From Ignavibacteriales bacterium (GTDB lineage: Bacteria; Bacteroidota; Ignavibacteria; UBA10030): a stretch of 60,165 nt of DNA. The position numbers and the translations under genes are program-made. Of this stretch, positions 30,455 through 52,054 are shown in pieces; position 1 is the stretch's first letter; each line of letters begins with the position of its first letter. The stretch is from NCBI GenBank assembly GCA_016194505.1, contig JACQBK010000051.1, forward strand, positions 1-60,165. The letters are read 5' to 3'. The notes below the pieces were generated by a model. That model was given only the letters and a program-made list of their open reading frames with translations. It ran no database searches and was not told where the DNA came from.

Positions 30455-30510
30455 CCACGAACAAAACTACAACAATGGCACTACGACCATGAAGGAAACA
30501 ATACAACCTT

Positions 30511-31254: not shown

Positions 31255-31330
31255 AAGAGCGTTTGGATTATCCTAGGCATTCGTGTAGAATACCGCGCCA
31301 TGATGCTGATGTATAAAATAATGAGTTGAA

Positions 31331-32002: not shown

Positions 32003-32029
32003 GCTATCCTCGTTAAAAAAGATTAATAG

Positions 32030-33139: not shown

Positions 33140-33156
33140 CGTTACCTCACTTCAAA

Positions 33157-36057: not shown

Positions 36058-36123
36058 AGATCGTCTGTGGCTACGTAGTGAGAAAATTGGGACAACTTAT
36101 CGTTGCGCAATGTTTTGGTGCGT

Positions 36124-36498
36124 TCACGAGTTCAAATATTTTTGTATGAGATTGAGCAGTTCCTCGGGGTCCATCGGCTTCGAGTAGTGCTCGGCACAGC
36201 CGATTTCTTTCGTGCGCGCTTTGTCTTCGGGTTTCGCCTGCGCCGTAAACGCGATGATGGGAATATGCTTCGTCCTCTCATCTGCCTTTAAAAGGGGAAC
36301 AGCCTGCCAGCCATCCATCACGGGCATCTGCATGTCCATCAAAATTAAAACCGGCGTTTTGCTGAACGCTTTTTCAAGGGCTTCCTGACCGTTCTCTGCA
36401 ATCTCCAGCTTTACATCTAAGCGGCTGCGGGAAATCACAAAGCTTACCAAATCACGGCTGTCCTCGTCATCTTCGACAAGTAATAGTGTCTTGCTCAT
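36124..36498 (-). CDS. Single-domain CheY-like response regulator
   Basis: The 124-aa product has canonical REC residues (LLVEDDEDS; LILMDMQMPVMDG; IIAFTAQA; YSKP). Confidence 0.9.
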   Translation of the reverse strand: MSKTLLLVEDDEDSRDLVSFVISRSRLDVKLEIAENGQEALEKAFSKTPVLILMDMQMPVMDGWQAVPLLKADERTKHIPIIAFTAQAKPEDKARTKEIGCAEHYSKPMDPEELLNLIQKYLNS

Positions 36499-36562
36499 GC
36501 TACGCTCCTTAATTTAGCGACAAGTGTCCACGGAATGAGTTGCCACGCGTCACAGTTCCTTG

Positions 36563-38557
36563 CTAACCCAGCGAAGAGATATATTCCCTAAAATGCGCCA
36601 GCTTTTCGTTCATTAAATTCATGAGTTCTTCGTATTCTATAGGCCGTTTGATGCACCCTTCGTTCGGTTTTAATTCCGATGAATTCAATTCCGTAATTTC
36701 ATCAATTTCACTAATGAGAATAAAGGGAACAAAGTTGAACTTCGAGTTTGCCCTAAGAACATGGAGAAACCGAACGCCGCTCAGGCCGCCTTCCGGAAAC
36801 TGCATATCACACAAAATAACGTTCGGGTTGATTTTTTCTATTTTCTCAAGAGCGTTTTCCGGCGTTGCGGCTGGAACAACGGCATACCCGGATGCCTTAA
36901 GCCTCGCGGAAATATCCTCTTTCGTGCCGATCGTTTTAGAGATTAAGAGGATCGTGCCTTTATACTGATCAGCGACAAGATCGAGCAAAAATTTGGATTC
37001 ATTTTCCAGATATTCGGTAACGCTCACCTGATACACCTTACGCAGCCACTCCAACGTTGAGGAGGAGTTCCTCAGCAGTTTACGCTTTGCAATGACTTCT
37101 TTAACGGCACGGCTGTACATATCCAGCTTTACTTCGCGAATAATGGATTGCTCCACTTCCGGAGGGATGGTAAGGGATATTGCAAGCTCGTGGAGCGACT
37201 CGGCGGCTTTTTCTACCGGCGAACCGTTCACCCACGCCGCTTCCAAGCTGGAACGAAGCTGTTGGACGGCTTTCTGAAGATTGTGCTTGGATATTTCTTC
37301 CCGTGCCCTTTTCTCCTGCTCGAGCGCCCTCGTCAGTTCTTCTATTTGAAGGCGCATCTCGTCTACGTTTTTGCGCTCTTCGGAGCTTTGTTCCGTCACC
37401 CCGCTGTGTGCAACAGGAAGCGTTGTTTCCTTTTTAGCCGCTTCCTGTGGAAGAGATGCTTGAGTTTGTTTTTGCGTGGCAACAGTTTGGGCTTCTAACC
37501 CTTTTCTTCGTTTTTCTTCAACGGCAATTTTCGCTTCTAATTCTTTTCGTCGTCGTTCTTCAGCAGCAGCGCGCCCTTCTATTTCCCGCATGCGTCGCTC
37601 TTCCTCGAGCCGCATCTCTTCATCACGCCGTCTGCGATCATCAGCGGCGATACGTTCTTCCAACTCTTTCCTGCGTCGTTCTTCTGTGGCGATGCGGACT
37701 TCCAGCTCTTTCCGCCGCTGTTCTTCCGCAAGGGCACGCGCTTCCAATTCTTTTCGTTGCCGCTCTTCCACCTCACGGGTTTCCGCATCTTTTCTCTTGC
37801 GTTCCTCGGTGGCAATGCGTTCTTCCAGCTCCTTGCGCTTTTGTTCCTCAGCGGCGATACGCAATTCCAGCTCACGGCGCAATCGTTCTTCCACGACGGC
37901 TCGCGCCTCCAAATCTCTCCTGCGCTGTTCTTCAATCATTCGTAATTCGGCTTCTTTGCGCCTCAATTCGCCTGCCGAAATCAGGTCGTCCAATTCTTTT
38001 CTTCTATGCTCTTCAGCATAGGTGCGCGCCAGCACCTCCTTCCGGATTTGCTCTTCGATGGTAAGCTTCGCAGTGGCAAACCGTTCGGCATCTCTTTTCT
38101 TCAACTCTTCCATTACTTGGAGCTCTAATTCTTTCTTTCGCTGTTCCTCATAGATATCAGGCACTTTTTTTGTCTCAAGTTGAGAGACCGGCACCTTCGG
38201 AGGCACGTTAGGAACAAACGGTTTCACTTCCGGCGCCGGAGTCGGGGGCGAAGGTGCTGCTTGTTTAAGCGGCTCTTTTACGACCGACGGTTGCGGCTTT
38301 GGGATTACGGGCGGCTTCGCCGCAGCCTCTTTCTTTCGTTGCTCCTCGAAGTATCCTATCCGATCCTGAAACGCATAAATGTACGGATTGGATGGGTCCA
38401 GTTTCTTTGCTTTCTCTAATTGCTTTCGCGCTAAATCGAACTGTGATTCTTTGAGTAACTTATCAGCCTCCAAAAGAAATTGTCTCGCGGCATCTTTATC
38501 CGTAGCTGAATTTGCGTTCTCTGCTTCTAGAGTCTTATTTGCGGGTTTGGCTTGCAA
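36563..38557 (-). CDS. TPR-like / proline-rich / long E-R-K coiled-coil protein with a C-terminal degenerate receiver domain
   Basis: The 664-aa product has an N-terminal TPR-like helix pair and a P-rich linker (aa ~80-125). About 220 aa of periodic EE(Q/R)RRKELE(A/E)RIA repeats follow. The C-terminal REC-like fold is (ILLISKT...VILCDMQFPEGG...PFILISE...IKRP), where the usual acidic DD pair is replaced by SK. Confidence 0.75.
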   Translation of the reverse strand: MQAKPANKTLEAENANSATDKDAARQFLLEADKLLKESQFDLARKQLEKAKKLDPSNPYIYAFQDRIGYFEEQRKKEAAAKPPVIPKPQPSVVKEPLKQAAPSPPTPAPEVKPFVPNVPPKVPVSQLETKKVPDIYEEQRKKELELQVMEELKKRDAERFATAKLTIEEQIRKEVLARTYAEEHRRKELDDLISAGELRRKEAELRMIEEQRRRDLEARAVVEERLRRELELRIAAEEQKRKELEERIATEERKRKDAETREVEERQRKELEARALAEEQRRKELEVRIATEERRRKELEERIAADDRRRRDEEMRLEEERRMREIEGRAAAEERRRKELEAKIAVEEKRRKGLEAQTVATQKQTQASLPQEAAKKETTLPVAHSGVTEQSSEERKNVDEMRLQIEELTRALEQEKRAREEISKHNLQKAVQQLRSSLEAAWVNGSPVEKAAESLHELAISLTIPPEVEQSIIREVKLDMYSRAVKEVIAKRKLLRNSSSTLEWLRKVYQVSVTEYLENESKFLLDLVADQYKGTILLISKTIGTKEDISARLKASGYAVVPAATPENALEKIEKINPNVILCDMQFPEGGLSGVRFLHVLRANSKFNFVPFILISEIDEITELNSSELKPNEGCIKRPIEYEELMNLMNEKLAHFREYISSLG
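37490..38152 (-). repeat. In-frame ~48-nt periodic repeat region encoding the E/R/K coiled coil
   Basis: The peptide shows about 13 tandem ~16-aa units, such as RRKELEERIATEE, RRKELEVRIATEE and RRKELEAKIAVEE. The DNA shows matching recurring strings (cttccagctc, gcgttcttc). Confidence 0.75.
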
Positions 38558-38967: not shown

Positions 38968-39540
38968 TCAATATGTTTTAAGCCTGCTGTATGTTACCGC
39001 TTGAAAATAACGGGGATCATCAGCAGGAACATTTTTTCTTACCAAGTACAGTGAATGACCGACATAAACGTCAATTCTTTTAAAATATGTTCTTGAGGTC
39101 GTTTTGATATCAAGATTCGTCCCCGTTACGTAATACACTTCGGCTGATACTTTAAAACCGGATATTGTTTTCGTATCGACCGTTCGTTGATAGCCGTTGT
39201 AATCATCCACATCAGTGTAATACATTTTGGATTTGAACGCGTTCGTGGATGACGAATCGGGCCAAGGAACGATGTTGCTCTTTTCGGTGCCATCAGGTCC
39301 CATGGTTGTTGAAAACGCTGATGTGCTTTGCGTTACTCCTGGTGTAGTGGTGGCATTCTCGTCAAATTTTTTGCTTGTTGCTTCCACTAAGAGATCTTGT
39401 GCAATGCCAACGGCAAGATCGTACGCTTCGGCTTCGTATCCCGATTGAGCGCTTTCCACAAGCATCCGATTTACATTGATCGCAGATGCGATAAGAAGCG
39501 CCAAGAACGCGGCAGTAATCATTGTCTGCCCCATGCTCAT
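38968..39540 (-). CDS. PilX/GspK-like minor pseudopilin-like protein
   Basis: The 190-aa product starts MSMGQTMITAAFLALLIASAI (a hydrophobic pilin-like N-terminal helix with at most a 4-aa leader ending in G). A PilX_N/GspK-like segment GYEAEAYDLAVGIAQ follows. An in-frame TAA three codons upstream excludes a longer leader. It is the last gene of the PilB/PilC operon. Confidence 0.45.
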   Translation of the reverse strand: MSMGQTMITAAFLALLIASAINVNRMLVESAQSGYEAEAYDLAVGIAQDLLVEATSKKFDENATTTPGVTQSTSAFSTTMGPDGTEKSNIVPWPDSSSTNAFKSKMYYTDVDDYNGYQRTVDTKTISGFKVSAEVYYVTGTNLDIKTTSRTYFKRIDVYVGHSLYLVRKNVPADDPRYFQAVTYSRLKTY

Positions 39541-39587
39541 GGTGCATTACCTTTTGTTCATGGAAAGAACGATATGCCCAGTGCCTA

Positions 39588-40391
39588 TCAGGGCTTTCGC
39601 GGATTTTGTGGAGCAACCACTTGTTGCTGCATGGTTTTCAGATTGCCGCTGAGCGTTTCTTGAAGCCGGGCGGCATAATTCGCATCAGTGAAATTTCCAT
39701 GAAGCACATTCGCCATGTTGAGCATGGATTTTACAGCCGACGAGATAACAGCGTACTCTTGCTTCATCTCCGCAAAGGCTTTTCCCAACCGTTGCTGACC
39801 TTCCGGCGTTACAAACGGTTTCAATTCCGTTTCATGTTCTTGAATATTCAGCGAGACCATTGAAAGCGAATTATTGACGATCTGGACGATGGAAGCAAGC
39901 GTGCTGTGGAATGTTTCAATGGCGATGAGGCTCTTTTCACGCTCACGCTCAATCATCTCGCGTCGTTCTTTTTCTTTTCTAAACAAATAGCGTTCGATGA
40001 CACCCGCAATAAGAACGGAGATATGGTCAATCTCGACATGCTCTTTCCGCACATAATCGTATGCGCCAAGTTTCATTGCCTCAACAGCAATACTTTCAGA
40101 CCCTGCCGACGTGAGCATAACGACGGGCGTATCAATTTTTTGTTCATGCATCCATTGCAGGACGTTCAATCCGGAGATGCCGCCCATTTTGTAATCGAGA
40201 ATTATGACGTCGTACCGGTGAAGTTGGAGCGCAGTCAGCGCCGCCTCGCCTGAATCACAGTCGTCAACCTTAAAATTCCCCGCCGAGGAAAGGACTTGTG
40301 TGATGGCCATGCGAAACGAATCGTCGTCATCAACAACAAGAATGAAGCGTTGGTCTTTATCCCAAGTAGATGCGTTCATAGCACTCTCCAA
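39588..40391 (-). CDS. Response regulator with a C-terminal helical domain of unknown function
   Basis: The 267-aa product has a canonical REC domain (ILVVDDDDS; IILDYKMGGISG; VVMLTSAGS; YVRK) followed by a ~130-aa helical region. It is a paralogue of the 52055..52738 protein. Confidence 0.85.
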   Translation of the reverse strand: MESAMNASTWDKDQRFILVVDDDDSFRMAITQVLSSAGNFKVDDCDSGEAALTALQLHRYDVIILDYKMGGISGLNVLQWMHEQKIDTPVVMLTSAGSESIAVEAMKLGAYDYVRKEHVEIDHISVLIAGVIERYLFRKEKERREMIEREREKSLIAIETFHSTLASIVQIVNNSLSMVSLNIQEHETELKPFVTPEGQQRLGKAFAEMKQEYAVISSAVKSMLNMANVLHGNFTDANYAARLQETLSGNLKTMQQQVVAPQNPRKP

Positions 40392-40415
40392 TCAAAATAT
40401 GAGCGTTTGTTATAA

Positions 40416-42218
40416 TTAATCGTCTTCAACGGTAACACTTGCGACCTCTTCAAGCGTTGTGATGCCGTTCTTCAGCAAATCAAGAGCGGACATGCGAAGT
40501 GTGTGCATGCCTTCCTTTGAGGCTTGTTCTCTCAATACTTCTTCGTCTATTGATTCTCCAGCTTTCAGCACCAATTGCCGAATTGCCTTCGTAAAATAGA
40601 GCGCTTCGTGAATTGCCCTGCGCCCCTTGTACCCTTTCAGGCAGTTAGAGCAGCCGACAGCCCGATAGATTTTGTGTTTCGCAATTTCTTCTTCTTTCAT
40701 GCCAAGCTTCAACAGTGCTTCTCTATCTGGGTCCTCCACCACCGCTTTGCAGCGGTCGCAAAGCTTACGCATGAGCCGTTGCGAAAGCACAATGTTAATG
40801 CTATAGGCAAGCAAAAATGGCTCCACGCCCATTTTATATAAGCGGGCAATAGCACTGACAGCGTCGTTGGTGTGGAGCGTTGCCAGTGTCAAGTGGCCCG
40901 TATTGGCTAATTTGACGGCGATTTCCGCAGTTTGCCGGTCACGAATCTCACCCACCATAACGATATCAGGGTCATGGCGAAGAATAGCCCTCAGCGCACC
41001 CTCAAAATCCAGTTTCGGATTAAGCTTTACTTGCCGCGCACCCTCGATAAAATACTCTACCGGGTCTTCGACCGTAATCACATTGAGGGACGGATCCATA
41101 ACCGTCCGTAATGCCGAAAAGAGCGTTGTGCTTTTGCCGCTTCCCGTAGGACCCGTAACAATGATCATACCATACGGTTTTGTGATCGCCTTGCGAAAAA
41201 CATTTTCCGAAAACCGGTCGAAACCCATATCCTCTAATCGCGTGCTGAAGAGGGGTTCTTGCAGAACGCGAATAACAATGGATTCGTACTTACTCTTAAG
41301 CTCTTTGCCGATTGTTGGGATAATCGAGACGCGAAAGCGGACGGTTTTTTTATCAATATTGAACTGCGCAAACCCATCCTGCGCCATGTTGCGCTCGAAG
41401 CGATCCAAATTCATGGCGCGGTCTTTCACAACTGCCGCAACTGCTTCGGCGCGGGTTTCCATGTTCGTATACCACAGGGTTAATTTTCCATCAATGCGGA
41501 AATGGAACTCTGTCTTTCTCTCACCTCGCGGAACAACGTGAATATCGCTTGCGCCCATCCGCACAGCATCTATAAAGACACTTTCGACAAGGCTGACCAA
41601 TCCACTACGGTTGATTTCCTCTTCAAGAACCTGCTCATACATATCAGCATCTTCTTCAGGAATATCCTCTGCCATGCCTTCGCGCGCTTCTGATTCAAGG
41701 CTCGCATATCCTGACCTGCTGATATTCACGCGTTGCCAAAGTTCCTGCCATTGTGCAAGGCGGACATAACATATCTCGAACTTTTGGAACGAGAACGAGC
41801 GACCGATGATATAGACTTCCCGCTTTGTCGGGTCGGGAGTTATCACCAACAATCTGCCGGGGCGTTCGAGGTCTTCAGCGTATGGAAGAACGCGGTTGTC
41901 CATCGCCAGAGTTTTTACGTTGGCGGGAAGATTATTCATCTCTCGCCGAATGAACGCCAAGTTTTCGTCGTCCATGGATTCCGGAGAAATTTCAAGCTTC
42001 CGGAAGGCGTAGTAATTGGCAATCTCTCCGTACACCTTATCATGGTCAACATGGAAATCTTCCACCAGCACCTGCGGCAAGCGGCGGCGCTTATCGTGGC
42101 CTTCCTGACTTAACTTATCCAGCGCTCTGAGAAGTTGTTCGGCAGAAATGATCTCTTTCTCGACGAGGAGATCGCCCAAGTCTTTTTTGATGCCGCGTAT
42201 GTTTGCAATTTCAGCCAT
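40416..42218 (-). CDS. Type II/IV secretion-system ATPase (GspE/PilB family extension ATPase)
   Basis: The 600-aa product has an N-terminal T2SSE_N-like domain (LGDLLVEKEIISAEQLLRAL) and Walker A GPTGSGKSTT. It has Asp/His boxes and Walker B (DPDIVMVGEIRD). The tetracysteine zinc motif is CDRCK...CSNCLKGYKGR. Confidence 0.9.
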   Translation of the reverse strand: MAEIANIRGIKKDLGDLLVEKEIISAEQLLRALDKLSQEGHDKRRRLPQVLVEDFHVDHDKVYGEIANYYAFRKLEISPESMDDENLAFIRREMNNLPANVKTLAMDNRVLPYAEDLERPGRLLVITPDPTKREVYIIGRSFSFQKFEICYVRLAQWQELWQRVNISRSGYASLESEAREGMAEDIPEEDADMYEQVLEEEINRSGLVSLVESVFIDAVRMGASDIHVVPRGERKTEFHFRIDGKLTLWYTNMETRAEAVAAVVKDRAMNLDRFERNMAQDGFAQFNIDKKTVRFRVSIIPTIGKELKSKYESIVIRVLQEPLFSTRLEDMGFDRFSENVFRKAITKPYGMIIVTGPTGSGKSTTLFSALRTVMDPSLNVITVEDPVEYFIEGARQVKLNPKLDFEGALRAILRHDPDIVMVGEIRDRQTAEIAVKLANTGHLTLATLHTNDAVSAIARLYKMGVEPFLLAYSINIVLSQRLMRKLCDRCKAVVEDPDREALLKLGMKEEEIAKHKIYRAVGCSNCLKGYKGRRAIHEALYFTKAIRQLVLKAGESIDEEVLREQASKEGMHTLRMSALDLLKNGITTLEEVASVTVEDD

Positions 42219-43613
42219 TTAGTCCTTATTCAACCAGATAATAGAATCCGGCTCCGCTTGGATCTGTTTGTCGCGCTTGGGCTCGATTTTAATAGTCGCC
42301 GTTTCGGAAGAAAGCAACGTGAGGAACACCATCGAACCCATGATAATCATCGAAACACCAACTTCGATAACGTTCACGAGATTTTTCATCGCGTACTTAT
42401 TTTCCATCTCATAGAATTCCGCTAACTGGATTGACGTTACTTTGACGCTGCCTGTTTCTGCCGCTGTGCGAAAACGGGAAATGACCACATCGGGAAAGAA
42501 CGTTGTCATTTCCATGGCTTTGGCAAACTCGGTGCCGTATTTGAGCATGGTAGGAATGGCAATATTCTTGATTTGCTTTTCGAGGTAGTGGTTACGGCTC
42601 GATTCGGCTGCGTGCTGGATGGCGTCAATATTTTCGCCGGAGGTGTACATAATGCCAAGGACACGGCAGAACATCTCTGTGCTCGTGTTTTTTAAAATCC
42701 GACCGATATACGGAACACGTATGATAAAGCGGTCAAACATCATCCGTCCATTCGTAGTCATCAAATAGCCGTAGAAGGCCCCCATCATCATACCGATACC
42801 GATGGTAATAGCAAGGAGGTTGTCCTTAATGAGCTGACTGATTTCCAGTGTGGTTTTTGTCAACGGGGGAATATCACTCGCCATCGGACCTAACAACTCA
42901 ACCATCCTAGGCAATAAATATAAGACATAAAACGCCAAAGCGCCAATTAATGCGAGGGAGGTTACCGCAGGCAAAATCATTGAGCTAATTAAACCTTTTT
43001 TAAAGTCGGCTTGGCGCTCGACAAATCTGGCAACGCTTTCAAAAATGGACTTCATATCTCCACTTTTGGATGCGATACCCAGCATTAAGGCTGTATCATA
43101 GCCAAACACCTTGCTTTGGCGCAAAAAAGCCTCGCGCGAATCCACGCCGTCTTTTAAGTCTTTGATGATAGCTTTGAGCGCGCCTTTCAGGTATTTATCC
43201 CGCGCATTTCCCATCATGATATGGAGAATATCGTTGTACGGAAGTTTTTGCTCAAGGAGCTTTGCGCTGGTGCCGATAAAGGCAACAATCTCATCGCTTG
43301 ATGCGGAGAATTGAACATCGTAAAATCGCCGCACACTGCGAACTTCGAATCCGAGTTTTTTGAGAGCGGAAGTGACTTCTTCACGCGAATACGCGCTTTG
43401 CACGCCATCAATAACGCTTTGACCTCTGCTGACGCGGTAACTGTAGCTCTTTTTTCGCTTCACCGATTGGATCGTCCATCCGTTAGTTTTCGCAAGAGCA
43501 TTCGCCCGCTCACGCGCCGCAAAGATGGATGTCGCGGTGATGAAACGCTGTAACGGACGACCGGCTTGGTCGGTGCCTTGTATTCGATATTCAGAGGCTT
43601 TTGGTTGGGGCAT
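42219..43613 (-). CDS. GspF/PilC-family inner-membrane platform protein
   Basis: It has two T2SSF-like repeats, each ending in TM helices, and N-terminal PilC-like cytoplasmic repeats (YRIQGTDQAGRPL...). The stop codon abuts the ATPase start (42219/42218). I place the start at the internal ATG (MPQPKAS...); the ORF track extends to 43652. Confidence 0.8.
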   Translation of the reverse strand: MPQPKASEYRIQGTDQAGRPLQRFITATSIFAARERANALAKTNGWTIQSVKRKKSYSYRVSRGQSVIDGVQSAYSREEVTSALKKLGFEVRSVRRFYDVQFSASSDEIVAFIGTSAKLLEQKLPYNDILHIMMGNARDKYLKGALKAIIKDLKDGVDSREAFLRQSKVFGYDTALMLGIASKSGDMKSIFESVARFVERQADFKKGLISSMILPAVTSLALIGALAFYVLYLLPRMVELLGPMASDIPPLTKTTLEISQLIKDNLLAITIGIGMMMGAFYGYLMTTNGRMMFDRFIIRVPYIGRILKNTSTEMFCRVLGIMYTSGENIDAIQHAAESSRNHYLEKQIKNIAIPTMLKYGTEFAKAMEMTTFFPDVVISRFRTAAETGSVKVTSIQLAEFYEMENKYAMKNLVNVIEVGVSMIIMGSMVFLTLLSSETATIKIEPKRDKQIQAEPDSIIWLNKD

Positions 43614-43769
43614 ACACTGTACAGTACAATAAAAAAATACAAAAAGCAGCACAGAAATTACCTCTGCTGCATTTGAATTATTATCCGTTATCTCCGGTAG
43701 TTCCTAAAGCGCTAAACCAAAGTCTTTACATAAGATAGCTGAACATTAATGAAGTGCGTACATGCTACT

Positions 43770-43991
43770 TCATTGCACCGCATTAGCGGGAACAGTGCGG
43801 TACGTTGCCCCACAGTGATGGCAATACTTTCCCTGCGGGTGAAGGATCGATTTGCCGCATTGGTGGCAGGATTCGATCAATTTGGTGCCGCAGAGAATGC
43901 AAAAAAATTGCTCTTCTGCAACGTGTGAAAAATTTCCGCATTTTGGACAAAGGCGATAGCGATTGTTATTGTTTTCTGAGACGTTTGTCAT
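43770..43991 (-). CDS. Double zinc-ribbon protein (paralogue 1)
   Basis: The 73-aa product has eight Cys in four CxxC pairs: CPKC...CILC...CHQC...CHHC. It shares the pattern YR-x-C-x-x-C-x-N-x-S...EEQ-x-FC-I-x-CGT-x-L-x-E-x-C-x-QC-x-K-x-I-x-H...C-x-x-CGA-x-Y with the 44185..44514 protein. Confidence 0.65.
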   Translation of the reverse strand: MTNVSENNNNRYRLCPKCGNFSHVAEEQFFCILCGTKLIESCHQCGKSILHPQGKYCHHCGATYRTVPANAVQ

Positions 43992-44184
43992 ACCGGCTCC
44001 GTGTGCGCTCGCTTATAGATGTTTCTTCTGACCAACATTGAGTAGAGTGGAACTTTCTATTATTCCTTTCTTCAGCCGCAGGCACAGTGGCGCCGCACAA
44101 TTTATCGTTGACGGCTTCATAGTGTTCACCGAGCGTATGAAGACAGGGAAACAATAGTGATGTATGTGAAGGGATAAAAAAACA

Positions 44185-44514
44185 TTACGGTCTACGGCGT
44201 GTAAGAAAGTCATTAGTAGGAAATTTCACCTCTAAGCGACGCGTTTGTTCCTTAGCCCAGCTTTCTACGCCAATGGCACCGCTCTTTCGCACCCCTTCTC
44301 CCTCGCTAAGCCTATGAACATCATCATATCGAGCGCCACAGTTATAACAGAACCTGCCGTTAGAATGAATTATAGGTTTTGAACATTGGGGACATTCCTC
44401 TGCAAGCCTTGTCCCGCACCAGATGCAAAAACGCTGTTCTTCCTTTGCAAGGGAGACATTATTGCAATTCGAACAAATTCTGTAGCTATGTGTCACTCGC
44501 GAATGTGAGATCAT
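44185..44514 (-). CDS. Double zinc-ribbon protein (paralogue 2) with a basic C-terminal tail
   Basis: The 109-aa product has CSNC...CIWC...CPQC...CYNC and is colinear with the 73-aa paralogue. A ~45-aa charged extension follows. Confidence 0.65.
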   Translation of the reverse strand: MISHSRVTHSYRICSNCNNVSLAKEEQRFCIWCGTRLAEECPQCSKPIIHSNGRFCYNCGARYDDVHRLSEGEGVRKSGAIGVESWAKEQTRRLEVKFPTNDFLTRRRP

Positions 44515-44526
44515 GACCTCAATTTC

Positions 44527-44955
44527 TTAGCTGGGATAGACATAGATTCTATCAATGCCCCATCTGCCACGGTTAAGACCATTCGAAGGGTTCGGATTTG
44601 CCTTGATTGAAACTTTAGCCTTCATTTTTGTTGTAACACCGTTGTACTTTGCCACTACAGTAACGGTTGCCTTATCAACGTCGCTATTGGGATCAATATT
44701 GTAAGTCACTGTATCGCCAAGAACAACTTTCGTATAGATATAGGTTTTCGATTGAAGTGTTCTGATATACGGATTGCATGCAAGCTCATCCAGCGCTATC
44801 TGCACACCCGTTTTGGCAATTTCTTCCGCTTGAATTTGATTCGCGCGGTCAACCGACGCCTGAAAGCTCGTATTTTCGGCGCTCTTAATCCCCAACGTAT
44901 ATGTCCCGATGATGATGGACAACAGACAAAACAGAATAACCTTAATGCTTCCCAT
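44527..44955 (-). CDS. PilX-like minor pilin-like protein
   Basis: The 142-aa product has a hydrophobic N-terminus (MGSIKVILFCLLSIIIGTYTL) followed by a PilX_N-like helix (ANQIQAEEIAKTGVQIALDE). An AAGGGGA Shine-Dalgarno-like sequence lies upstream. It is 14 nt from the preceding gene. Confidence 0.45.
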   Translation of the reverse strand: MGSIKVILFCLLSIIIGTYTLGIKSAENTSFQASVDRANQIQAEEIAKTGVQIALDELACNPYIRTLQSKTYIYTKVVLGDTVTYNIDPNSDVDKATVTVVAKYNGVTTKMKAKVSIKANPNPSNGLNRGRWGIDRIYVYPS

Positions 44956-44969
44956 GTGATTTCCCCTTA

Positions 44970-45554
44970 TTACAAATTTACAGGATACACTCTAAACTCT
45001 TTTGTCGCAGTAGAATTGGACAATGTGGTTGATGTTACTGTGCCGGCGGCTGTTGCGCCAATTCTCGCATTCAGTTCGATCCTCATTGCTTTTATTGAAC
45101 TCAATGTGGTTGTATAATTTCCGTTTGCGTCAAAATACTGAAAGGAAAAACTCCGAAGATTTTTTGCAATGGAAAATTCCGTCCCGCCGTTAATGACTCG
45201 CCTTATTTTCCATGTTGTGTCAACGACTGCTTGTGCCCCATTGTACCAAACAGTATCTATCGTGTAGATTCCATAGTAACGAATAACATCAGATCCCCCT
45301 TTGTTATCAAGGTCGGCACGAAATTGTACTGATCTCGCTTTGGCTGAATCAAGTGCCGGCGAACTTACGTTATATCCGGCTTGTTTTATATCTTGATACA
45401 TAATGTTGGCGGATATTTCGAGATTTGCCCTTGTGTTTGCGGCGGCTGTTTTATCGTAAAGAGCTGAATTAAGCGTAACAGTCATGCTTAAAATGATCAA
45501 AATAATTGCGCTCCGAATTAAGGTTGACCCGATTAAATCTAAGAGAAACGTCAT
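44970..45554 (-). CDS. GspJ/PilW-like pseudopilin-like protein lacking a leader peptide
   Basis: The 194-aa product starts M-TFLLDLIGSTLIRSAIILIILS, which resembles a mature type IV pilin N-terminus with Asp at +5. An in-frame TAA at 45561-45563 lies two codons upstream of the ATG. It is the first gene downstream of a sigma-54 promoter. Confidence 0.45.
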   Translation of the reverse strand: MTFLLDLIGSTLIRSAIILIILSMTVTLNSALYDKTAAANTRANLEISANIMYQDIKQAGYNVSSPALDSAKARSVQFRADLDNKGGSDVIRYYGIYTIDTVWYNGAQAVVDTTWKIRRVINGGTEFSIAKNLRSFSFQYFDANGNYTTTLSSIKAMRIELNARIGATAAGTVTSTTLSNSTATKEFRVYPVNL

Positions 45555-45614
45555 GAACTCTTACCAAATATGTATCACAGAATGAAGACAAGATTTTGAG
45601 ATATACTAATACCT

Positions 45615-45630
45615 TGCAAAAACGATGCCA
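45615..45630 (-). promoter_or_regulatory. Sigma-54 (-24/-12) promoter
   Basis: The minus strand reads TTGGCATCGTTTTTGCA, that is TGGCAT-N5-TTGCA with the canonical 12-nt GG-to-GC spacing. It lies ~60 nt upstream of the 45554 start. An NtrC-type activator is encoded immediately upstream. Confidence 0.8.
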
Positions 45631-45709
45631 ACCTTATGTAGTTTGTAAAATCCTCAGTTTAAATGGAAAAATGATATTTTAGTTTGTATTCCCAATTTTA
45701 GCCACAAAA

Positions 45710-45760
45710 ATTCTGAGCTAATCAGAATTTATATCATTTTGATTCTGAATGATTCAGAAT
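45710..45760. promoter_or_regulatory. Two palindromic candidate enhancer (UAS) sites for the NtrC-family activator
   Basis: ATTCTGA-gctaa-TCAGAAT lies at 45710-45728 and ATTCTGAAT-g-ATTCAGAAT at 45742-45760. Their centres are 32 bp apart, ~97 and ~129 bp upstream of the -24/-12 element. Confidence 0.6.
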
Positions 45761-45904
45761 ATCAGACTACCAAGATTTATAATGGTATTAGGCTTAAAAA
45801 CTGTATAAAACAAATTCTGCGAGGAGAGTCAGCTAAATGTATAAAAAAGAGACATGGAGAGGATTTGGCTGGGAAAAACGCTTAATTTTAGAGGGTATAA
45901 ATAT

Positions 45905-47299
45905 TTAAGAAGAATTTTTCTTTTGGAGTTTGATGCCTAAACGTGAGCATTTATCGTAGAGGGTTTTTTCAGGAATACCCAAAAGTTTTGCACTTTCCTT
46001 GATGTTCCAATTTGTTTGCTCAAGGTAGCGATAAATTACAAGCCGGGCGGCGGAATCTCTTGCATTTTTTTCGACCTCAGGGAGTGATAACCCGGAAGAT
46101 ACCACAGATTCCCCCCCGCCGATCTCTTTGGGAAGATGTTCTAATGTAATAACGCCTCCTGCCGACAGCAACAGCGCGCGTTGAATGACGTTTTCCAACT
46201 CACGAACATTGCCGGGCCAGTGATATTGAAGCATGCAATCTAACGCCACGGGGTCAACGGTGATTTCCGACTTATTCAGGTCTTTACCGAAGCGTTTAAG
46301 GATGTGTTCCACCAACAACGGAATATCTTCTTTATGTTCACGCAACGGGGGAAGCACGATAGGATAGACATTCAGGCGGTAGAACAAATCTTGCCGGAAC
46401 TCGCCCTGCTCCGTCATCGCCGTGAGGTCCCGATTGGTTGCCGCGATCACCCGGACATTCACGGGAATGGGGCTTGCGCCTCCAACACGGTCAATTTCCC
46501 TTTCCTGCAACACTCTCAACAATTTTACCTGAAGATGAATATCGAGTTCCGCAATTTCATCGAGGAATATTGTTCCGCCATCGGCAAGCTCGAACTTGCC
46601 AGGTTTAGTTTGTGTCGCTCCGGTAAATGAGCCTTTTTGGTGACCGAATAATTCGCTTTCGATCAATTCTTTCACAAGCGAGGCACAATTGACAGCGACG
46701 AAGACACGCTGGCTTCGTTTGCTTGCCGCATGAATTTCCCTTGCAACAAGCTCTTTGCCTGTTCCGGATTCTCCCGTAATGAGCACCGTTACATCTGTCA
46801 TCGAAACGCGCTGGATGGATTCAAACACGCGCTCTATAGAGGGTGTTGCTCCAACGATTCTTCCGGAAACGCGCTGGACTTCCTCGCGCAGAAGCTCGTA
46901 ATCGCGTTTTAATTCGCGCTGGGCGAGAGCTTTTTCCACCAGCGTTTTTAGTTCTTCAATTTTGGGAGATTTGGGAATGTAATGATACGCTCCCAGCCTC
47001 ATAGACTCGACCGCGCTTTCGACGGATGCATGTGATGTCAACATGATGACGGGAAAATCCGGCATCTCATCTTTTACCTGTTTAAGGACGTTTAAGCCGC
47101 TCTGACCGTCGCCTAACATGAGATCAAGCAACATGACATCTACCTTTTTGTGGCTCAAAATCTCAAATGCCTCCTTATCCGTCATGGCAGTCAAAACGGT
47201 AAAGAAATTTTTCATCAAAGACTCAAAGTCTTCGAGAAAAATTTTGCTGTCATCAAGGACAAGGAGTGTGCGCAGCTGATCCATAGGACGGTTAGACAA
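45905..47299 (-). CDS. Sigma-54-dependent response regulator (NtrC/PilR family: REC-AAA+-Fis HTH)
   Basis: The 464-aa product has a REC domain (LLVLDDSK...MLLDLMLGDGQSG...VIMLTSH). The AAA+ domain has Walker A GESGTGKE, the GAFTGA-type loop GSFTGA, and Walker B (IFLDEI). A C-terminal HTH follows (NIKESAKLLGIPEKTLYDK). Confidence 0.9.
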   Translation of the reverse strand: MSNRPMDQLRTLLVLDDSKIFLEDFESLMKNFFTVLTAMTDKEAFEILSHKKVDVMLLDLMLGDGQSGLNVLKQVKDEMPDFPVIMLTSHASVESAVESMRLGAYHYIPKSPKIEELKTLVEKALAQRELKRDYELLREEVQRVSGRIVGATPSIERVFESIQRVSMTDVTVLITGESGTGKELVAREIHAASKRSQRVFVAVNCASLVKELIESELFGHQKGSFTGATQTKPGKFELADGGTIFLDEIAELDIHLQVKLLRVLQEREIDRVGGASPIPVNVRVIAATNRDLTAMTEQGEFRQDLFYRLNVYPIVLPPLREHKEDIPLLVEHILKRFGKDLNKSEITVDPVALDCMLQYHWPGNVRELENVIQRALLLSAGGVITLEHLPKEIGGGESVVSSGLSLPEVEKNARDSAARLVIYRYLEQTNWNIKESAKLLGIPEKTLYDKCSRLGIKLQKKNSS

Positions 47300-47364: not shown

Positions 47365-49431
47365 TCAAGGCTTTACAACTTGCAATCGCAACAAAAAGGT
47401 GGTTCCACTATTTTCTACGCTTTCTTTAATACTGATATCGCCGTCATATTTTCTCAGCATAGCGGGCAGTTTTGAAAGCTCCGTCTCCTGGGTATTGTTC
47501 TCTGAAGGCGTGAAGATTGTTCCCCACAGTTGAGGTTCGAGGTAGAGTTTGCTATCCCGCATTTCCAACTCCCAGCGACCACCGACGACCCTCCCCGCAA
47601 ACACAAGCTCCGTTTCTTCGTTTCCGTGCATTTGACCGAGTACATAATGAAGAAGCGTCGCAATTACTTGGGAGAACTCAATTTCCGAAGCAACCACGAC
47701 CGGCTCTGCCTGCGTTAACTGTTCTGCGACTATGAACTTAACGTTTGCGGTGGTCTTGCGCTGCCGATCAAGAATTTCTTGAAGAAGATGATTCGGCTTG
47801 CACCGAAACTCGCTAAACACATATTCCCTCATGACTCGAAATGTATAGAGCAGTTGGTCAACATGCTTTGGAATCGTCTTTTCGAAATTCCGAATATCTT
47901 CAGACTCAATTTTTGGGTTGAGACTTAACGGACGCACAATGGTAGCCAACTCTTGCACGTGAAATTTTAATGCTTGAACGGTCTCGGAGTCGAACGAAAG
48001 CAGTTGAAATTGCTGCGCAATATCCATCAGCCGCGGATGAACTTTCTCCAGAAATTCTATGAGCGAGGCGCGAAACCTGTCGTATTGATACGGTGCGGTT
48101 GTTTCGTTGAGGTTTCGACCGAAAAGAGCGACGCGGTTAATATTCATGTGCCCCCATCCACCATGCGCGAACGGCTGTAACTCTACCAGGAGCTTCTCTT
48201 TTGTTTGCTGGTCAAGGCTTTTTTCTGATGTTCCTTGTGGCAATATATGCGAGCCTGACATTGTTCCGGTTTCCTCTTGTTGATGTTCATCTTCAGAGTA
48301 ACAGTACTGATGGACGTTCGGCGCGATGATCACGCTGAACATTGAGCCTTTTCCCGCTTCGCTCGTCACTTCAAGGCGATAGCCGAGCACATCGCAGAGC
48401 GTCCGGGATATCGCCAATCCCAAACCCGTCCCTCCGTAGCGCCGCGTGGTCGTGCTATCACCTTGTTTGAATGGTTCAAAAATAATTTGTTGCTGTTCGC
48501 GGGGAATACCGACACCGGTATCCATAACATCAACGCGAACAGGTATAGAGGTTAGAGCATCAACCGCTACGCGAATTTTTATTGTCCCGCGCTCGGTAAA
48601 TTTAACTGCGTTGCCAAGAAGATTGACGAGAATTTGCTTAAACTTTTGCCGATCCGTTTGGACGGACTCTACGCGCGTTGGCAACTCAACATGTACAGTA
48701 ATGTCTTTGCCGAGTAATTTTACGCCGAACTGGGCAACCGTGTCGTAAATCAGCACGCTCAGCGATGTTGGCGCGAGATTAACTTCTGCTTGACCTGCCT
48801 CAATTTTGGAGAGGTCGAGGATGTCGTTAATAAGGCTCAGCAAATCTTTACCATTGGCAAGAATTCGCTCAAGATACAATACATCCTGCTCTTGTAAATT
48901 CTTGGCTTTATTTTTTAGCAAAACGTTTGTGAACCCGATAACGGAGTTCAACGGTGTCCGCAGCTCATGGCTCATGGTAGCAAGAAATTCGCTTTTCGCC
49001 TGATTCGCTTCCTCCGCTTTCATTTTGGCAATTTCCAACTGCCCCGATTTTTTCTGTAATTGGTGAAGAAGTGCGTTCAGCATTTCGTTCACTTCCGAAA
49101 GCCTGTTCTTCTTCTCAAGAGTTTCCTCGACATGTCGCTTCGTTCTTCGCTCAAGGTTTTGACGGTGCCGAAGAAAATGTCTTACACCAAAAAAATACAA
49201 CGCCGTACCGACAAGCAATAAGAGCAGTATGCAAAGAACATAAAATATTCTTGTTTGATAAAACAAGGGGGCAAGCCATACGCTCACCACAATGCAAAGG
49301 TTATTCCACAATCCGGAGTTGTTTGCTGGCGTGTTCCAGACCGTCCGCGCTGCGATTGTTTGAACCGCAAGCACTTCAACAAACAGAAAAATCCTTACCG
49401 CCCACGCTCGTATACTTACGTTGGCATGCAT
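47365..49431 (-). CDS. Membrane histidine kinase with a long C-terminal extension ending in a second, degenerate ATPase-like module
   Basis: The 688-aa product has N-terminal TM segments and a coiled coil. The H-box is [15 protein letters not shown], and N/G boxes are present ([12 protein letters not shown]; DTGVGI; GGTGLGLAI). A further ~315 aa end in a region laid out like a kinase CA domain ([11 protein letters not shown]...WELEMRD...GTTFLLRL) without clear G boxes. Confidence 0.85.
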
Positions 49432-49439
49432 TGTTATAC

Positions 49440-49814
49440 TTATGGTGAGTTGTTTATCCAGCGGGCGATTGTTGCAAGAAACGCATCCTCATCAACAATG
49501 GGCTTAGCGACATAGTCATTGAAGCCCACACCGAGGTAACGCTCGCGGTCGCCGGACATCGCGTGCGCCGTCAAAGCTATAACCGGCAGTTTTTTAAGCC
49601 GCTCATCATTCCTGATGTGCGACAAGAGCTCGACTCCATCCATACCGGGAAGAGAAATATCAAGAAGAATAAGCTCCGGGACTTTCCTCTTCAACCCTTG
49701 TAACGCTTCGAACCCCGTAACATATTCGGTTAACTCATACAGTTCGCTTACAATCGCTCGAACAAGAAGACGGTTATCTTTATTGTCTTCGATAAGAACA
49801 ATGGATTTCATCAT
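49440..49814 (-). CDS. Single-domain response regulator
   Basis: The REC motifs are [10 protein letters not shown]; [13 protein letters not shown]; VIALTAHA; YVAKP. I place the start at MMKSIV (49814). The ORF track's longer form (to 49979) adds a non-REC, poorly coding-like leader. Confidence 0.85.
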
Positions 49815-50162
49815 TACTCCTTCCGACATGCCTTCTGATGTACAATTGCCGCAACCCCTCTCCGGAAATTGACCAGGCACCGGATAGAACGCCGAAAAGC
49901 CCAGTTTGGTTGGAGAATCCACTCGAAGAATGGTGATAACCAATTTCACCTCAATACTTCTAAAAAAAGCAATATACAACCTCTCCTCCTTACATATTGA
50001 TAAGTATAACAGGATTAGGCTGAAAGTGCAATACGTTATTCGATACGGTAAGAGCTTATTTTGGGCGGGTTAAGGGGCGGGTGTACTTATCTCGCTCTGA
50101 AAAAGCCGTAGACAGAGTACTTCATTCACAAAGACATTGAGGAAACAACGATTCGTCTTTTT

Positions 50163-51725
50163 TCAAATGTATAGTTTTATGGAGGGCCAAATATCCTTGA
50201 GCGGAGTTTTCAAGCCCCGGCAAAGAAAAATTGGGCGGTTGTTCTCATACGGCATAGCATATTCATTATAGGTGGAACCAACTTGCGTTACTTCATTATA
50301 GACCTTTTTGTGATCTTCGGGATTGCCCCCGATAATAATAAGGATCTCGCCTGCGTACCCTCTCGTCCCCCACAAAAAATAGCTGTTGTGCCCGCTTATC
50401 GCTTTGGGCAAGTTATATTTTTTGCCAAAGAAGTCTATCGCCCCGGCTTCGCCATAATTTTGGGCGTATATGGCGCATTTGGATTGTTCTTCAGGTGAAA
50501 GCTTGCTATACACTTCTGCAACGGCAGCAGTCATTTCCTCCCAACCATGCATATCGGCATACATCTGAGGCAGTTTTCCGATCCTGTTTCGTTCTTCCTG
50601 CGGAGGTTTAATTCCTAATGCATTCGAATATCGAATAAACCCTTCAACGGGTAGCGCCGGCAAAGCAAAAGGCGCGGTAATCGCTCCACCAACGATCAGA
50701 AACCCAACCATGGTCGGCTTGAGCCATTTCCAATTTGTTCGCGCAATTATATCCTGCACAAACAACGCTCCAGTTGCGAACAACATTGGGTAAACAGGGG
50801 TGAGATAATATGCTTTGGACCGTTGAACGACGAGAAATACGAAAATGGCAACATACATCCAGCCGACGATACGATATTGTTTTCCTTTTGAGTAAAAAAA
50901 ACAATAATACAATCCCGCGAACCACAAAAGAAAACTAATTGGACTCATCATGAGAATCTGCGCAAGAGTAAACTCTATTGGTGACATCGAAGCGTTTTTG
51001 AGCTGTGTGGCGTTCATCATAAACTCAATCGTGGGAAGGTCATGCTGGACTTGCCAAATGATATTTGGAAGAAAAATTAAAAACGCAACGACACCGCCCA
51101 TCCAGAGCCATTTATCACGGAAATATTTTCTGTGGGGTGTAAGCATCAACCCGACGACAAGCCCGAATCCGAGAAATAACATGCTTAATTTATTTTGCAA
51201 ACCGAGACCGGCAATAACACCGAAGAGCAGCCAGAGTTTGGAATTTCCCGATTTCACAATGAGAAGAATAACGTATATACCTGCGGTCCAGAGCAAGAGA
51301 TCAAAGCAATTCATCGAATAGAAATTCGTTACCGTAAGATAGACGGGCGCAACCATCACTGCAACTGCCGCGAGGATTTGTGCGAATCGGTTCCCGCCGA
51401 GCATACGAACCATCAGCCCCATTAAAAGCACTGTGCCGGCTCCCGCAAATACCGGGAGTAATCGAAGTGCAAAGACGGAGGAATCGCCAACGACCACTCG
51501 ACTTATCGCGAGAAGCAGAATCGAAAGCGGGGGGTGATCTATATAACCCCAATCAAGGTGGTCACTACACGCAATATAATATAGCTCATCTCGAAAGTAT
51601 CCATATCCGCTGCCTGTGAGAAAATGAATTAGCAATGTCGCGAGTGCAAGATAAGAAATTACGGCGACATCATTTAAGAATGGACTGCGGGGTTTCTCTA
51701 ATGAAGGAGATGAAGAGTGTTCCAT
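50163..51725 (-). CDS. GT39/GT83-type (ArnT/PMT-like) membrane glycosyltransferase
   Basis: The 520-aa product has ~11-12 TM helices and the N-terminal loop motif YFRDELYYIACSDHLDWGYIDHPPL, typical of the dolichyl/undecaprenyl-phosphate-sugar transferase family. The C-terminal domain is soluble. Confidence 0.75.
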   Translation of the reverse strand: MEHSSSPSLEKPRSPFLNDVAVISYLALATLLIHFLTGSGYGYFRDELYYIACSDHLDWGYIDHPPLSILLLAISRVVVGDSSVFALRLLPVFAGAGTVLLMGLMVRMLGGNRFAQILAAVAVMVAPVYLTVTNFYSMNCFDLLLWTAGIYVILLIVKSGNSKLWLLFGVIAGLGLQNKLSMLFLGFGLVVGLMLTPHRKYFRDKWLWMGGVVAFLIFLPNIIWQVQHDLPTIEFMMNATQLKNASMSPIEFTLAQILMMSPISFLLWFAGLYYCFFYSKGKQYRIVGWMYVAIFVFLVVQRSKAYYLTPVYPMLFATGALFVQDIIARTNWKWLKPTMVGFLIVGGAITAPFALPALPVEGFIRYSNALGIKPPQEERNRIGKLPQMYADMHGWEEMTAAVAEVYSKLSPEEQSKCAIYAQNYGEAGAIDFFGKKYNLPKAISGHNSYFLWGTRGYAGEILIIIGGNPEDHKKVYNEVTQVGSTYNEYAMPYENNRPIFLCRGLKTPLKDIWPSIKLYI

Positions 51726-52054
51726 AAAACTCCTACTTTTTCAAGGGATGGGTTGAGAGCGATGTTGTTTGGGAAGTTATAGCAGGTGCTCCTTTATGTA
51801 TGCTTCATTGTCATAAAAAATCATACGGAGGTGTCGGCAAGATGTTTCCAACAACGATGGTAAAGATTGAAAAAGGAATGCACTCGTTGGGGTGAAATTT
51901 CAGCCTTTTGGACAGACTAAACATAAACCGGAAAGGTTACTACCTTGCGAAGGATGATTTCAATAGGAGTGCGTATCGAAAAATCTACAGAATTAAAGCA
52001 GGCAAGTTTTCAAGATTAAGATGAAAAACTATTATATCAAGTATTACCCATAAG

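Follow-up and report, generated by a model that had tools for sequence, protein, structure and literature searches.

To our knowledge, each of the type IV filament systems found in textbooks, be it the pili, type II secretion, Com, Tad or the archaella, needs a dedicated peptidase to remove a leader from all of its subunits, and the class III leader signal is the means by which such subunits are recognised in genomes. In type IVa pilus (T4aP) systems PilS and PilR control pilA, which holds the first position in the operons under their control, and in the Com systems the pilins carry a class III signal and depend on the ComC peptidase. It is common for T4aP genes to be distributed among several loci, and the 'T2SS' (type II secretion system) of Cytophaga hutchinsonii (CHU_3191-3201) clusters with T4aP and not with T2SS (PMC6668835); among the genes of this cluster are those for a Peptidase_A24, a major pseudopilin resembling GspG, and a secretin (PMC5553014). 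In the complete genome of Melioribacter roseus pilT, pilQ, pilB and pilC were noted, and pilA and pilD were reported as not found (PMC3534657). Beyond that genome note, our search of the literature on leaderless pilins, pilins processed by methionine aminopeptidase, Ignavibacteria pili and the operon type described here found nothing. Here we analyse an eight-gene operon with a pilus-type motor and small pilin-like proteins on a 60 kb contig from an Ignavibacteriales bacterium (JACQBK010000051.1, positions 1 to 60,165), the whole of which is referred to as the window.

The operon is real and conserved, and it is a member of the superfamily of type IV filaments (TFF). Its novelty lies in pilins that are leaderless and non-canonical, in the reduction of the gene set, in its new accessory proteins and in its sigma-54 control. 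On balance we incline to the view that it is a reduced and separately regulated paralogue of a non-canonical T4aP-like machine of the Ignavibacteria type, a fuller version of which is found in related genomes. All eight open reading frames (ORFs) are present at the limits given in the original prediction, from 45554 to 38968, and the strand can be specified as minus; the names g1 to g8 follow gene order in the 5' to 3' direction on that strand, and coordinates are window positions throughout.

44970-45554, minus strand: g1, 194 amino acids (aa), no Pfam or NCBIfam family match
44527-44955, minus strand: g2, 142 aa, no Pfam or NCBIfam family match
44185-44514, minus strand: DZR109, double zinc ribbon (Pfam DZR, E 2.7e-10)
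43770-43991, minus strand: DZR73, double zinc ribbon (Pfam DZR, E 2.6e-9)
42219-43652 as longest ORF, 42219-43613 from the likely ATG, minus strand: PilC (Pfam T2SSF)
40416-42218, minus strand: PilB, 600 aa (Pfam T2SSE, 348 bits)
39588-40391 as ORF, 39588-40379 from the likely ATG, minus strand: REC, receiver-domain protein (Pfam Response_reg, 96 bits)
38968-39540, minus strand: g8, 190 aa, no Pfam or NCBIfam family match

The stop-start abutment at 42219/42218 and the spacings of 12-47 nt are as first described, and the two longer gaps measure 193 nt and about 117-156 nt, depending on the start of PilC, which from comparison with relatives is most likely the ATG at 43613 (464 aa); that of REC is most likely the ATG at 40379 (263 aa).

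The best characterised of the small proteins is g1. In its AlphaFold2 (AF2) model (mean predicted local distance difference test, pLDDT, 91.6) residues 2-57 form a helix, after which comes a beta sheet, and when this model was compared with the PDB by Foldseek the best six matches were all XcpW/GspJ (E 4.5e-4 to 3.7e-3, probability 1.0). When 1.84 billion cluster representatives were searched with a profile built from g1 and four of its close relatives, 373 matched at E <= 0.001, nearly all of the 150 listed being 170-200 aa long and aligned from residue 1. Two proteins matched by this profile, P0107 (E 7e-10) and P0153 (E 8e-8), are canonical pilins with Pfam N_methyl and the class III signals AG/FSIVEML and SG/FTLIELL (the stroke marks the cleavage site), and they share with g1 its body motifs and a C-terminal (P)xNL ending. 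The sole PDB sequence-profile match of the g1 family, weak but sensible, is the Thermus pilin TTHA1219, with Asp6 of g1 aligned on pilin Glu5. The initial description of g1 as GspJ/PilW-like therefore holds by predicted structure and by homology, and the GspJ-like fold is well supported by the model. A profile comparison of g1 with the single E. coli GspJ gave no significance, which we put down to the single-sequence template; because the comparisons with E. coli GspJ, GspI and GspK all used such templates, the structure search was relied on instead.

The N-terminus of the g1 family has the consensus M-[GSATN]-x-[ILVFM]-[LI]-D-[IL]-[ILV]-G-S, and 108 of the 138 sequences have Asp6. The g1 ATG of the window is preceded, at a distance of two codons, by a stop codon, so that no leader is possible there, and in 35 of the 36 motif-bearing homologues, which come from independent genomes, the start codon (34 ATG, 1 GTG) is exactly five codons before the Asp. 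As far as reading frames can tell, these start codons show that g1 is made without a leader peptide and with its Asp in the place of pilin Glu5, and in our reading, with the acidic residue and the body motifs that they have in common aligned, the initiator Met is in register with Gly(-1), and the Asp with Glu5, of P0107 and P0153. After removal of the Met the N-terminus of g1 would read TFLLD, with the Asp at position 5. About three quarters of the g1 relatives have a small residue in second place, which is what methionine aminopeptidase requires. We also observe an Arg or Lys at position 14 of the family, within the hydrophobic helix, in 66 of 138 members (about 45513-45515 in the window); lying eight residues past Asp6, it could be a charge partner within or between subunits.

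Relatives were identified by scanning one genome per species, and the best 80 of the 274 matches were classified by gene content. Among these 80 there are about 26 loci of the present operon type, with PilB 61-77% identical, all in Ignavibacteriales-type or 'Bacteroidota' metagenome-assembled genomes (MAGs). The closest loci keep the order activator, g1, g2, DZR, DZR, PilC, PilB, REC, g8, so that the synteny of the zinc-ribbon pair with the ATPase and platform genes, raised in the original prediction, is conserved in these, with DZR109 present in 16 orthologous loci and confined to this PilB clade among the best 80 of 274 matches. Other loci of the type have the order PilC, PilB, g8, g1, g2, and in L014 (1-1241, minus strand) a g8-like and a g1-like gene occupy the opposite strand, just upstream of the activator, the operon itself being without g1, g2 and g8.

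The remaining loci (L032-L082), from Melioribacter, Ignavibacteria and some other MAGs of the Fibrobacteres-Chlorobi-Bacteroidetes (FCB) group, constitute what we will refer to as the fuller locus. Their PilB is about 48-50% identical to that of the window, and they share with the operon the phylum, the g8-, g1- and g2-like families and the want of a canonical pilin signal; the g1-like proteins have the same leaderless Asp motif, and no pilin-like protein of these loci matches N_methyl. They contain two to four tandem genes of a kind we call 'MGQQQLLL', the PilC and PilB genes, and one gene each of the g8-like, g1-like and long g2-like families, and they also encode a secretin, a PilM-like protein, a protein of 294 aa and an ATPase of the PilT family, which scores 326 bits (cut-off 319). 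The fuller locus differs from the operon by the addition of the tandem genes, the PilT-family ATPase, the PilM-like and 294-aa proteins and the secretin, as well as by the absence of the zinc-ribbon pair and, in the loci examined, of an activator directly upstream of the pilin-like genes. The 'MGQQQLLL' proteins are 125-129 aa long, with a nearly invariant N-terminus MGQQQLLLI(I/V)LGVIIVGIA, and account for 75 ORFs in 39 loci (for example L045:6714-8390); their genes are located before PilC, and they have no Pfam or NCBIfam match. Judging from their sequence and gene position they are probably major subunits with a one-residue 'leader' or none. The pilin-like trio of the fuller loci has the order g8-g1-g2, equivalent to PilV-PilW-X (GspI-J-K).

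This order bears on the identity of the two other small proteins. The g8 model (pLDDT 92.5) consists of a helix at residues 4-55 and an alpha/beta domain, so that both g1 and g8 have the long N-terminal helix and globular domain of a pilin fold, as had been suggested for the small proteins; its best Foldseek match, a weak one, is XcpV/GspI (E 0.14, probability 0.8), and the homologue in L045 matches the PilV model weakly (E 0.01). The N-terminus of g8 is MSMGQTMIT, with a conserved Gly-Gln and a family start M-x-x-G-Q. The family comprises 306 proteins, of which those named at source are all called 'hypothetical protein', and none of the 118 members scanned has a credible Pfam family. The original prediction took g8 for a third PilX/GspK-like protein; the pilin-like part of that assignment stands, but the label does not, and g8 is probably PilV/GspI-like, as far as the model and these weak matches indicate. 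For its part g2 is a short membrane-anchored protein with an N-terminal hydrophobic segment and the start MG(S/N/R/K), linked by jackhmmer to the 338-480 aa proteins that come after the g1-like gene in fuller loci. A scan of 20 family members gave DUF4900 matches for three of the long ones (best E 3.2e-8) and weak ComGG matches for two, and from these sequence matches g2 would be a truncated relative of the long proteins, PilX/ComGG-like. PDB sequence-profile searches with the g8 and g2 families gave chance-level matches only, and profile comparisons of g8 with E. coli GspI and of g2 with GspK, made with the single-sequence templates mentioned above, were not significant. As regards the GspI-J-K tip complex, the GspJ-like fold of g1 is thus well supported, the GspI match of g8 is weak, and the comparison of g2 with GspK is insignificant.

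As g2 and g8 have no significant sequence match to known pilins, one might suppose that g1, g2 and g8 are ordinary membrane-anchored proteins that lie by chance next to a PilB and PilC with another job. We give this very little credence, in view of the homology of g1 to N_methyl pilins, its GspJ-like predicted structure, and the retention of the g8-g1-g2 order beside PilB/PilC in dozens of genomes.

The motor genes are clear. PilB has a Walker A motif (356-363), an Asp box (380-388), a Walker B motif (416-427) and a His box (440-449), the set expected of a PilB/GspE assembly ATPase of the TFF superfamily, and its tetracysteine motif consists of CxxC pairs at 487-490 and 523-526, so that the ATPase originally described by its Walker A and tetracysteine motifs can be located in full. 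It scores 447 bits against the NCBIfam type_IV_pilB model and 394 bits against GspE, and its closest solved structures, over the full length, are the PilB of M. xanthus and Geobacter and Thermus PilF, followed by GspE. A cyclic di-GMP-binding MshEN motif was considered for PilB and rejected, the score being below the cut-off (27 versus 38 bits) and the key Arg and Gly being replaced. PilC is the polytopic inner-membrane platform that it had been called: T2SSF matches in two stretches (86 bits), there are three hydrophobic segments, and almost its entire length is covered by the NCBIfam models for GspF (139 bits) and PilC (126 bits), both scores being under their equivalog cut-offs. The profile check with Pfam and NCBIfam that had been recommended thus returns T2SSE and T2SSF for the two proteins, along with Response_reg and two DZR domains elsewhere in the operon.

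With a GspJ-like protein and a GspF-like platform at hand it could be argued that the operon encodes a type II secretion-like pseudopilus, in which a GspI/J/K-like trio driven by the ATPase exports folded proteins. The resemblance to GspI-GspJ-GspK (XcpV-W-X) is considerable: g1 matches GspJ best (XcpW/GspJ for its model), g8 has XcpV/GspI as its best if weak match, the genes retain the I-J-K order, the acidic residue is missing from the last member as it is from GspK, the score of PilC is a little better with GspF than with PilC models, and the operon has no PilT or other retraction ATPase. Set against this, the sequence similarity to E. coli GspI, GspJ and GspK is insignificant, PilB is nearer to T4aP PilB than to GspE, the sister system of the fuller loci has a bona fide PilT, as its score above shows, and no candidate secreted substrates are encoded nearby. 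Moreover, GspD, GspC, GspL, GspM and GspG-like genes are not found in the window by phmmer with the E. coli Gsp proteins or by Pfam, GspH is likewise lacking, and GspO, GspC, GspL and GspM of E. coli have no phmmer match there. We therefore regard a secretion pseudopilus as unlikely.

The comparison with a T4aP minor-pilin priming module and its motor (Pseudomonas FimU-PilVWX and the M. xanthus minor pilin/PilY1 clusters) is closer. Here PilB is nearest to the PilB of Myxococcus and Geobacter and to Thermus PilF, the platform is of the PilC type, the fuller loci have the V-W-X order, g1 is homologous to PilW-type N_methyl pilins, and the operon is under predicted control by sigma-54 and an NtrC-type activator, comparable to the control of pilA by PilS and PilR. 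Unlike such modules it has no class III leader, N_methyl motif, major pilin, PilY1, PilMNOPQ or PilT, g2 is cut to 142 aa, the operon includes, as insertions, a receiver protein and two zinc-ribbon proteins, and no prepilin peptidase is found nearby. The last point rests on a search for GspO-like prepilin peptidases that was negative both for the window and for the 1.3 Mb of sequence lying within 10 kb of 82 related PilB genes, and in which the secretin was found 52 times.

Within the window these absences bear out what had been claimed. In a six-frame scan of the 60 kb a canonical class III signal is absent from every real ORF, the only two strict matches being in antisense frames, and N_methyl (Pfam and NCBIfam) has no match in g1, g2 or g8, so that subunits with a class III signal peptide, otherwise a mark of the superfamily, are not seen. 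Every window ORF of at least 230 aa was scanned against Pfam, and among these there is no homologue of PilD, of the PilQ secretin, of the PilM/N/O/P alignment complex or of PilT; with the negative E. coli Gsp queries, this agrees with the statement that PilD, PilQ/GspD, PilMNOP and PilT are all missing from the window. PilB is its single T2SSE protein, and a PilT/PilU retraction ATPase is not encoded. No major pilin was found either, since the window has no N_methyl protein and a profile hidden Markov model of the 'MGQQQLLL' family finds nothing in it (best E 2.3). The gene content is, as claimed, smaller than and different from the textbook T4aP, T4bP, Tad, Com and T2SS loci.

Two further systems are worth comparing. 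The Com (ComG) system, the competence pseudopilus of monoderms, is likewise a minimal set of an ATPase, a platform and a few pilin-like proteins, without alignment complex, secretin or retraction ATPase, and two g2 relatives match ComGG weakly; but Com has the major pilin ComGC, and the host here belongs to the FCB group and is taken as diderm, there being secretins in the sister loci and, in the window, a DUF362 protein with a C-terminal type IX secretion system (T9SS) sorting domain (Por_Secre_tail; 16255-17880, minus strand), which fits an FCB-group host having type IX secretion. The Cytophaga 'T2SS' is also a divergent type IV filament system of the FCB group, but its Peptidase_A24, GspG-like protein and secretin have no counterpart in the window.

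The relation of the operon to the fuller locus is best seen from PilB. In a neighbour-joining tree rooted on PilT paralogues, the present operon type and a four-gene module form clade A and the fuller loci clade B, the two being sister clades. The four-gene module, which has unrelated neighbours, consists of g8-like, g1-like and long g2-like genes and a 648-674 aa PilB paralogue, and lacks PilC (L028:7313-11725, L029:7440-11746 and L031 around 9710); in three MAGs it occurs together with a fuller locus (L040, L045 and L042). The split between clades A and B, together with the presence of both kinds of locus in three MAGs, therefore supports an old duplication. By this sequence-based account the window type would be a reduced paralogue in which a PilC of its own was retained and to which the activator and the pair of zinc-ribbon genes were added. 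The suggestion of an undescribed filament or secretion variant is accordingly supported in part: the operon is a genuine type IV filament-type module, but it does not stand alone, the PilB clade being sister to that of the fuller loci.

A plausible objection is that the genome has only one T4aP-like pilus, dispersed over several loci as in Pseudomonas, in which case the operon would hold pilB, pilC and minor pilins, and the major pilin, PilT, PilMNO and secretin would be encoded elsewhere. T4aP genes are indeed often spread in this way (PMC6668835), the intermediate locus L022 has a 'MGQQQ' pilin-like gene beside PilC, and no second PilB locus was seen in the roughly 26 genomes of this type among the best 80 of 274 matches. 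That absence means little, because the matches are the best 80 of 274, and the separation of the PilB clade from the PilB of the fuller loci, with the sister branch and a fuller locus side by side in three MAGs, points to duplication instead; a single dispersed pilus is possible, in our judgement, but we doubt it. A plain minor-pilin cluster can be ruled out, because the operon has its own PilB and PilC. Since related genomes carry the fuller locus, the operon may complement a fuller set elsewhere in its genome, the alternative allowed for originally, although such a set would itself be non-canonical: the fuller loci have no N_methyl pilins, no prepilin peptidase was found within 10 kb of their PilB genes, and in M. 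roseus pilA and pilD are reported as missing.

The region upstream of g1, and the interval between DZR73 and PilC, contain a number of elements that suggest how the operon may be expressed. The genes 5' of the operon are, in order, an NtrC-type activator, a membrane histidine kinase and a receiver protein.

47365-49431, minus strand: membrane histidine kinase, 688 aa, two N-terminal hydrophobic segments, HisKA and HATPase_c
45905-47299, minus strand: NtrC/PilR-type sigma-54 enhancer-binding response regulator, with REC, Sigma54_activat (242 bits), AAA lid and HTH_8
45743-45759, no strand assigned: palindrome TTCTGAATGATTCAGAA (TTCTGA-N5-TCAGAA), candidate distal upstream activator site (UAS)
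45711-45727, no strand assigned: palindrome TTCTGAGCTAATCAGAA, candidate proximal UAS, at 32 bp from the distal one and roughly 80-100 nt upstream of the -24 element
45615-45630, minus strand: sigma-54 type -24/-12 promoter TGGCATCGTTTTTGCA (TGGCAT-N5-TTGCA), starting 76 nt upstream of the g1 ATG
43646-43670, minus strand: predicted terminator-like hairpin, with a T tract at 43631-43645, a possible attenuator between the pilin/DZR genes and the motor genes

The activator combines the receiver, AAA+ and helix-turn-helix parts of a sigma-54 enhancer-binding protein, and about 18 orthologous loci have it directly upstream of the module; the kinase, presumed to be its sensor, precedes it in many of them. 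The promoter TGGCATCGTTTTTGCA is the sole strict sigma-54 match in the whole window on both strands. The same -24/-12 element is present at 76-77 nt in L001 and L002, the two closest relatives, and TGG[CT]A[CT]-N5-TTG[CA] occurs at a similar place in other orthologous loci, the strict pattern being found upstream of the first operon gene in three only (L001, L002 and L027). The sequence TTCTGA-N5-TCAGAA has just two occurrences in 60 kb, where 0.01 would be expected, both 81-129 nt upstream of the promoter element, and similar palindromes (TTCNGR-N5-YCNGAA) lie upstream in orthologous loci. At the level of predicted sequence elements, then, a -24 GG/-12 GC promoter and upstream activator sites do precede the operon. 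The GC content at 44001-46000, which takes in g1, g2 and the promoter region, is 40.4%, compared with about 47% in the rest of the window.

The hairpin and T tract (43631-43670) resemble an intrinsic terminator and are a possible attenuator; in L001 and L002 the stem sequence is changed, with the pairing and the T tract retained. Because this hairpin lies between DZR73 and PilC, the single transcription unit first proposed may in fact be two units, or one that is attenuated. In three relatives the same interval contains GC-rich, hairpin-forming insertions of 150-360 nt (L010:8286-8570, L011:4825-5188 and L025:5028-5179), which look like repetitive extragenic palindromic (REP) or miniature-element insertions.

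The place of g1 in this arrangement raises the question of whether it might itself be a major subunit, g1, g2 and g8 together forming a self-sufficient short periplasmic or surface fibre that needs no secretin, alignment complex or retraction. It comes first behind the predicted sigma-54 promoter, the position of pilA in PilS/PilR-controlled operons, and upstream of the hairpin, which suggests higher expression of g1 to DZR73, and it alone of the three proteins has the acidic residue used in subunit packing. We consider this improbable all the same: we know of no GspJ/PilW-type protein with a role as major subunit, a surface fibre in a diderm needs an outer-membrane channel, and the tandem 'MGQQQLLL' proteins of the fuller loci fit the major-subunit role better.

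Returning to a reduced, separately regulated paralogue of the fuller machine, the following mechanism can be proposed. The kinase would phosphorylate the activator, which would bind the palindromes and switch the operon on, and, owing to the hairpin after the fourth gene, expression would be stronger for the pilin and zinc-ribbon genes than for the motor genes. Loss of the initiator Met, in most family members by methionine aminopeptidase, would replace prepilin-peptidase processing for g1 and put its N-terminus in register with that of a mature pilin. PilB and PilC would then extract g8, g1 and g2 from the inner membrane into a PilV-W-X/GspI-J-K-like priming or tip complex, or a short pseudopilus, while the receiver protein and the two zinc-ribbon proteins might tune or scaffold the motor under the neighbouring conserved phosphorelay. 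Because the operon has no major-subunit candidate, secretin or retraction ATPase, a long surface filament would need parts from elsewhere, namely 'MGQQQLLL'-type subunits and a secretin, for passage through the outer membrane, encoded at other places in the genome. As a bolder proposal, which we put forward tentatively and would not call probable, Ignavibacteria and some neighbouring FCB lineages would make filaments from genetically 'pre-processed' pilins, in which the start codon stands in for Gly(-1), so that a prepilin peptidase can be dispensed with; the operon of the window would be a minimal version of this, switched by sigma-54, with a motor and three such pilins, without secretin, alignment complex or retraction ATPase, and with the two zinc-ribbon proteins and the receiver as new motor accessories.

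Several points weigh against our interpretation. A prepilin peptidase, major pilin, secretin, PilMNO or PilT could lie elsewhere in this genome. About 13% of the g1 relatives have Asn after the Met, which methionine aminopeptidase normally leaves uncleaved, and there is a conserved Gly near the N-terminus of g8, g2 and the 'MGQQQLLL' proteins, because of which cleavage after this Gly by some unrecognised peptidase is conceivable. The assignments of g8 and g2 are based on weak structural or sequence similarity plus gene order, the roles given to the zinc-ribbon and receiver proteins are proposed from gene position alone, and for PilB the tree was made by simple neighbour joining and carries no support values. 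Finally, many orthologues, judged by eye, have TTGA and not TTGC as the -12 element.

A whole family of pilin homologues, with 373 cluster representatives for g1 alone, starts at the residue with which a mature pilin would normally start. This implies either that assembly-competent pilins can arise by a route independent of a peptidase or that there is a processing step as yet unrecognised. It would also account for the reported absence of pilA and pilD in Melioribacter and for the failure of motif-based tools to pick up these subunits. With its zinc-ribbon and receiver proteins, the reduced operon under sigma-54 control offers a small and tractable gene set with which the minimum requirements of filament priming could be studied, and since cultured strains of both Melioribacter and Ignavibacterium exist, a direct test of the idea is within reach for the fuller system.

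The accessory proteins of the operon have their own distribution. DZR109 and DZR73 are cytoplasmic double zinc-ribbon proteins and are paralogous, as originally noted (54% identity over 56 residues, E 2e-22). DZR73 is just upstream of PilC in the loci that have it, and is retained in loci without g1 and g2 in the operon (L005, L006, L008, L012 and L014). The receiver-domain protein, correctly so named at the outset, has a C-terminal region of about 140 aa of no recognised type, its PDB matches covering the receiver and linker only, and its gene is directly 3' of PilB in most orthologous loci.

Downstream of g8 the operon is followed by a group of signalling genes.

30511-38557, minus strand: signalling cassette, comprising a 664-aa protein with coiled coil and C-terminal receiver, a single receiver, a hybrid kinase (966 aa), a REC-kinase (369 aa), a receiver protein (223 aa) and a DUF6901 protein (Pfam)

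This cassette stands beside the module with its order unchanged in at least 12 genomes, and in L016, L017 and L030 it directly precedes PilC; orthologues of the DUF6901 protein (30511-31254) are then directly upstream of PilC. The 664-aa protein (36563-38557, minus strand), directly downstream of g8 in many orthologous loci, has long Glu/Arg/Lys-rich coiled-coil repeats (EERRRKELE-like units) and a weak C-terminal receiver, and is reminiscent of the coiled-coil receiver proteins of motility regulation. In all, about 20 kb around the operon (29087-36498 and 49440-52738, minus strand) encode five histidine kinases and at least nine receiver domains, an unusual density. The window also contains an IS200/IS605-type Y1 transposase gene (57966-58403, minus strand; Y1_Tnp, E 1.7e-28).

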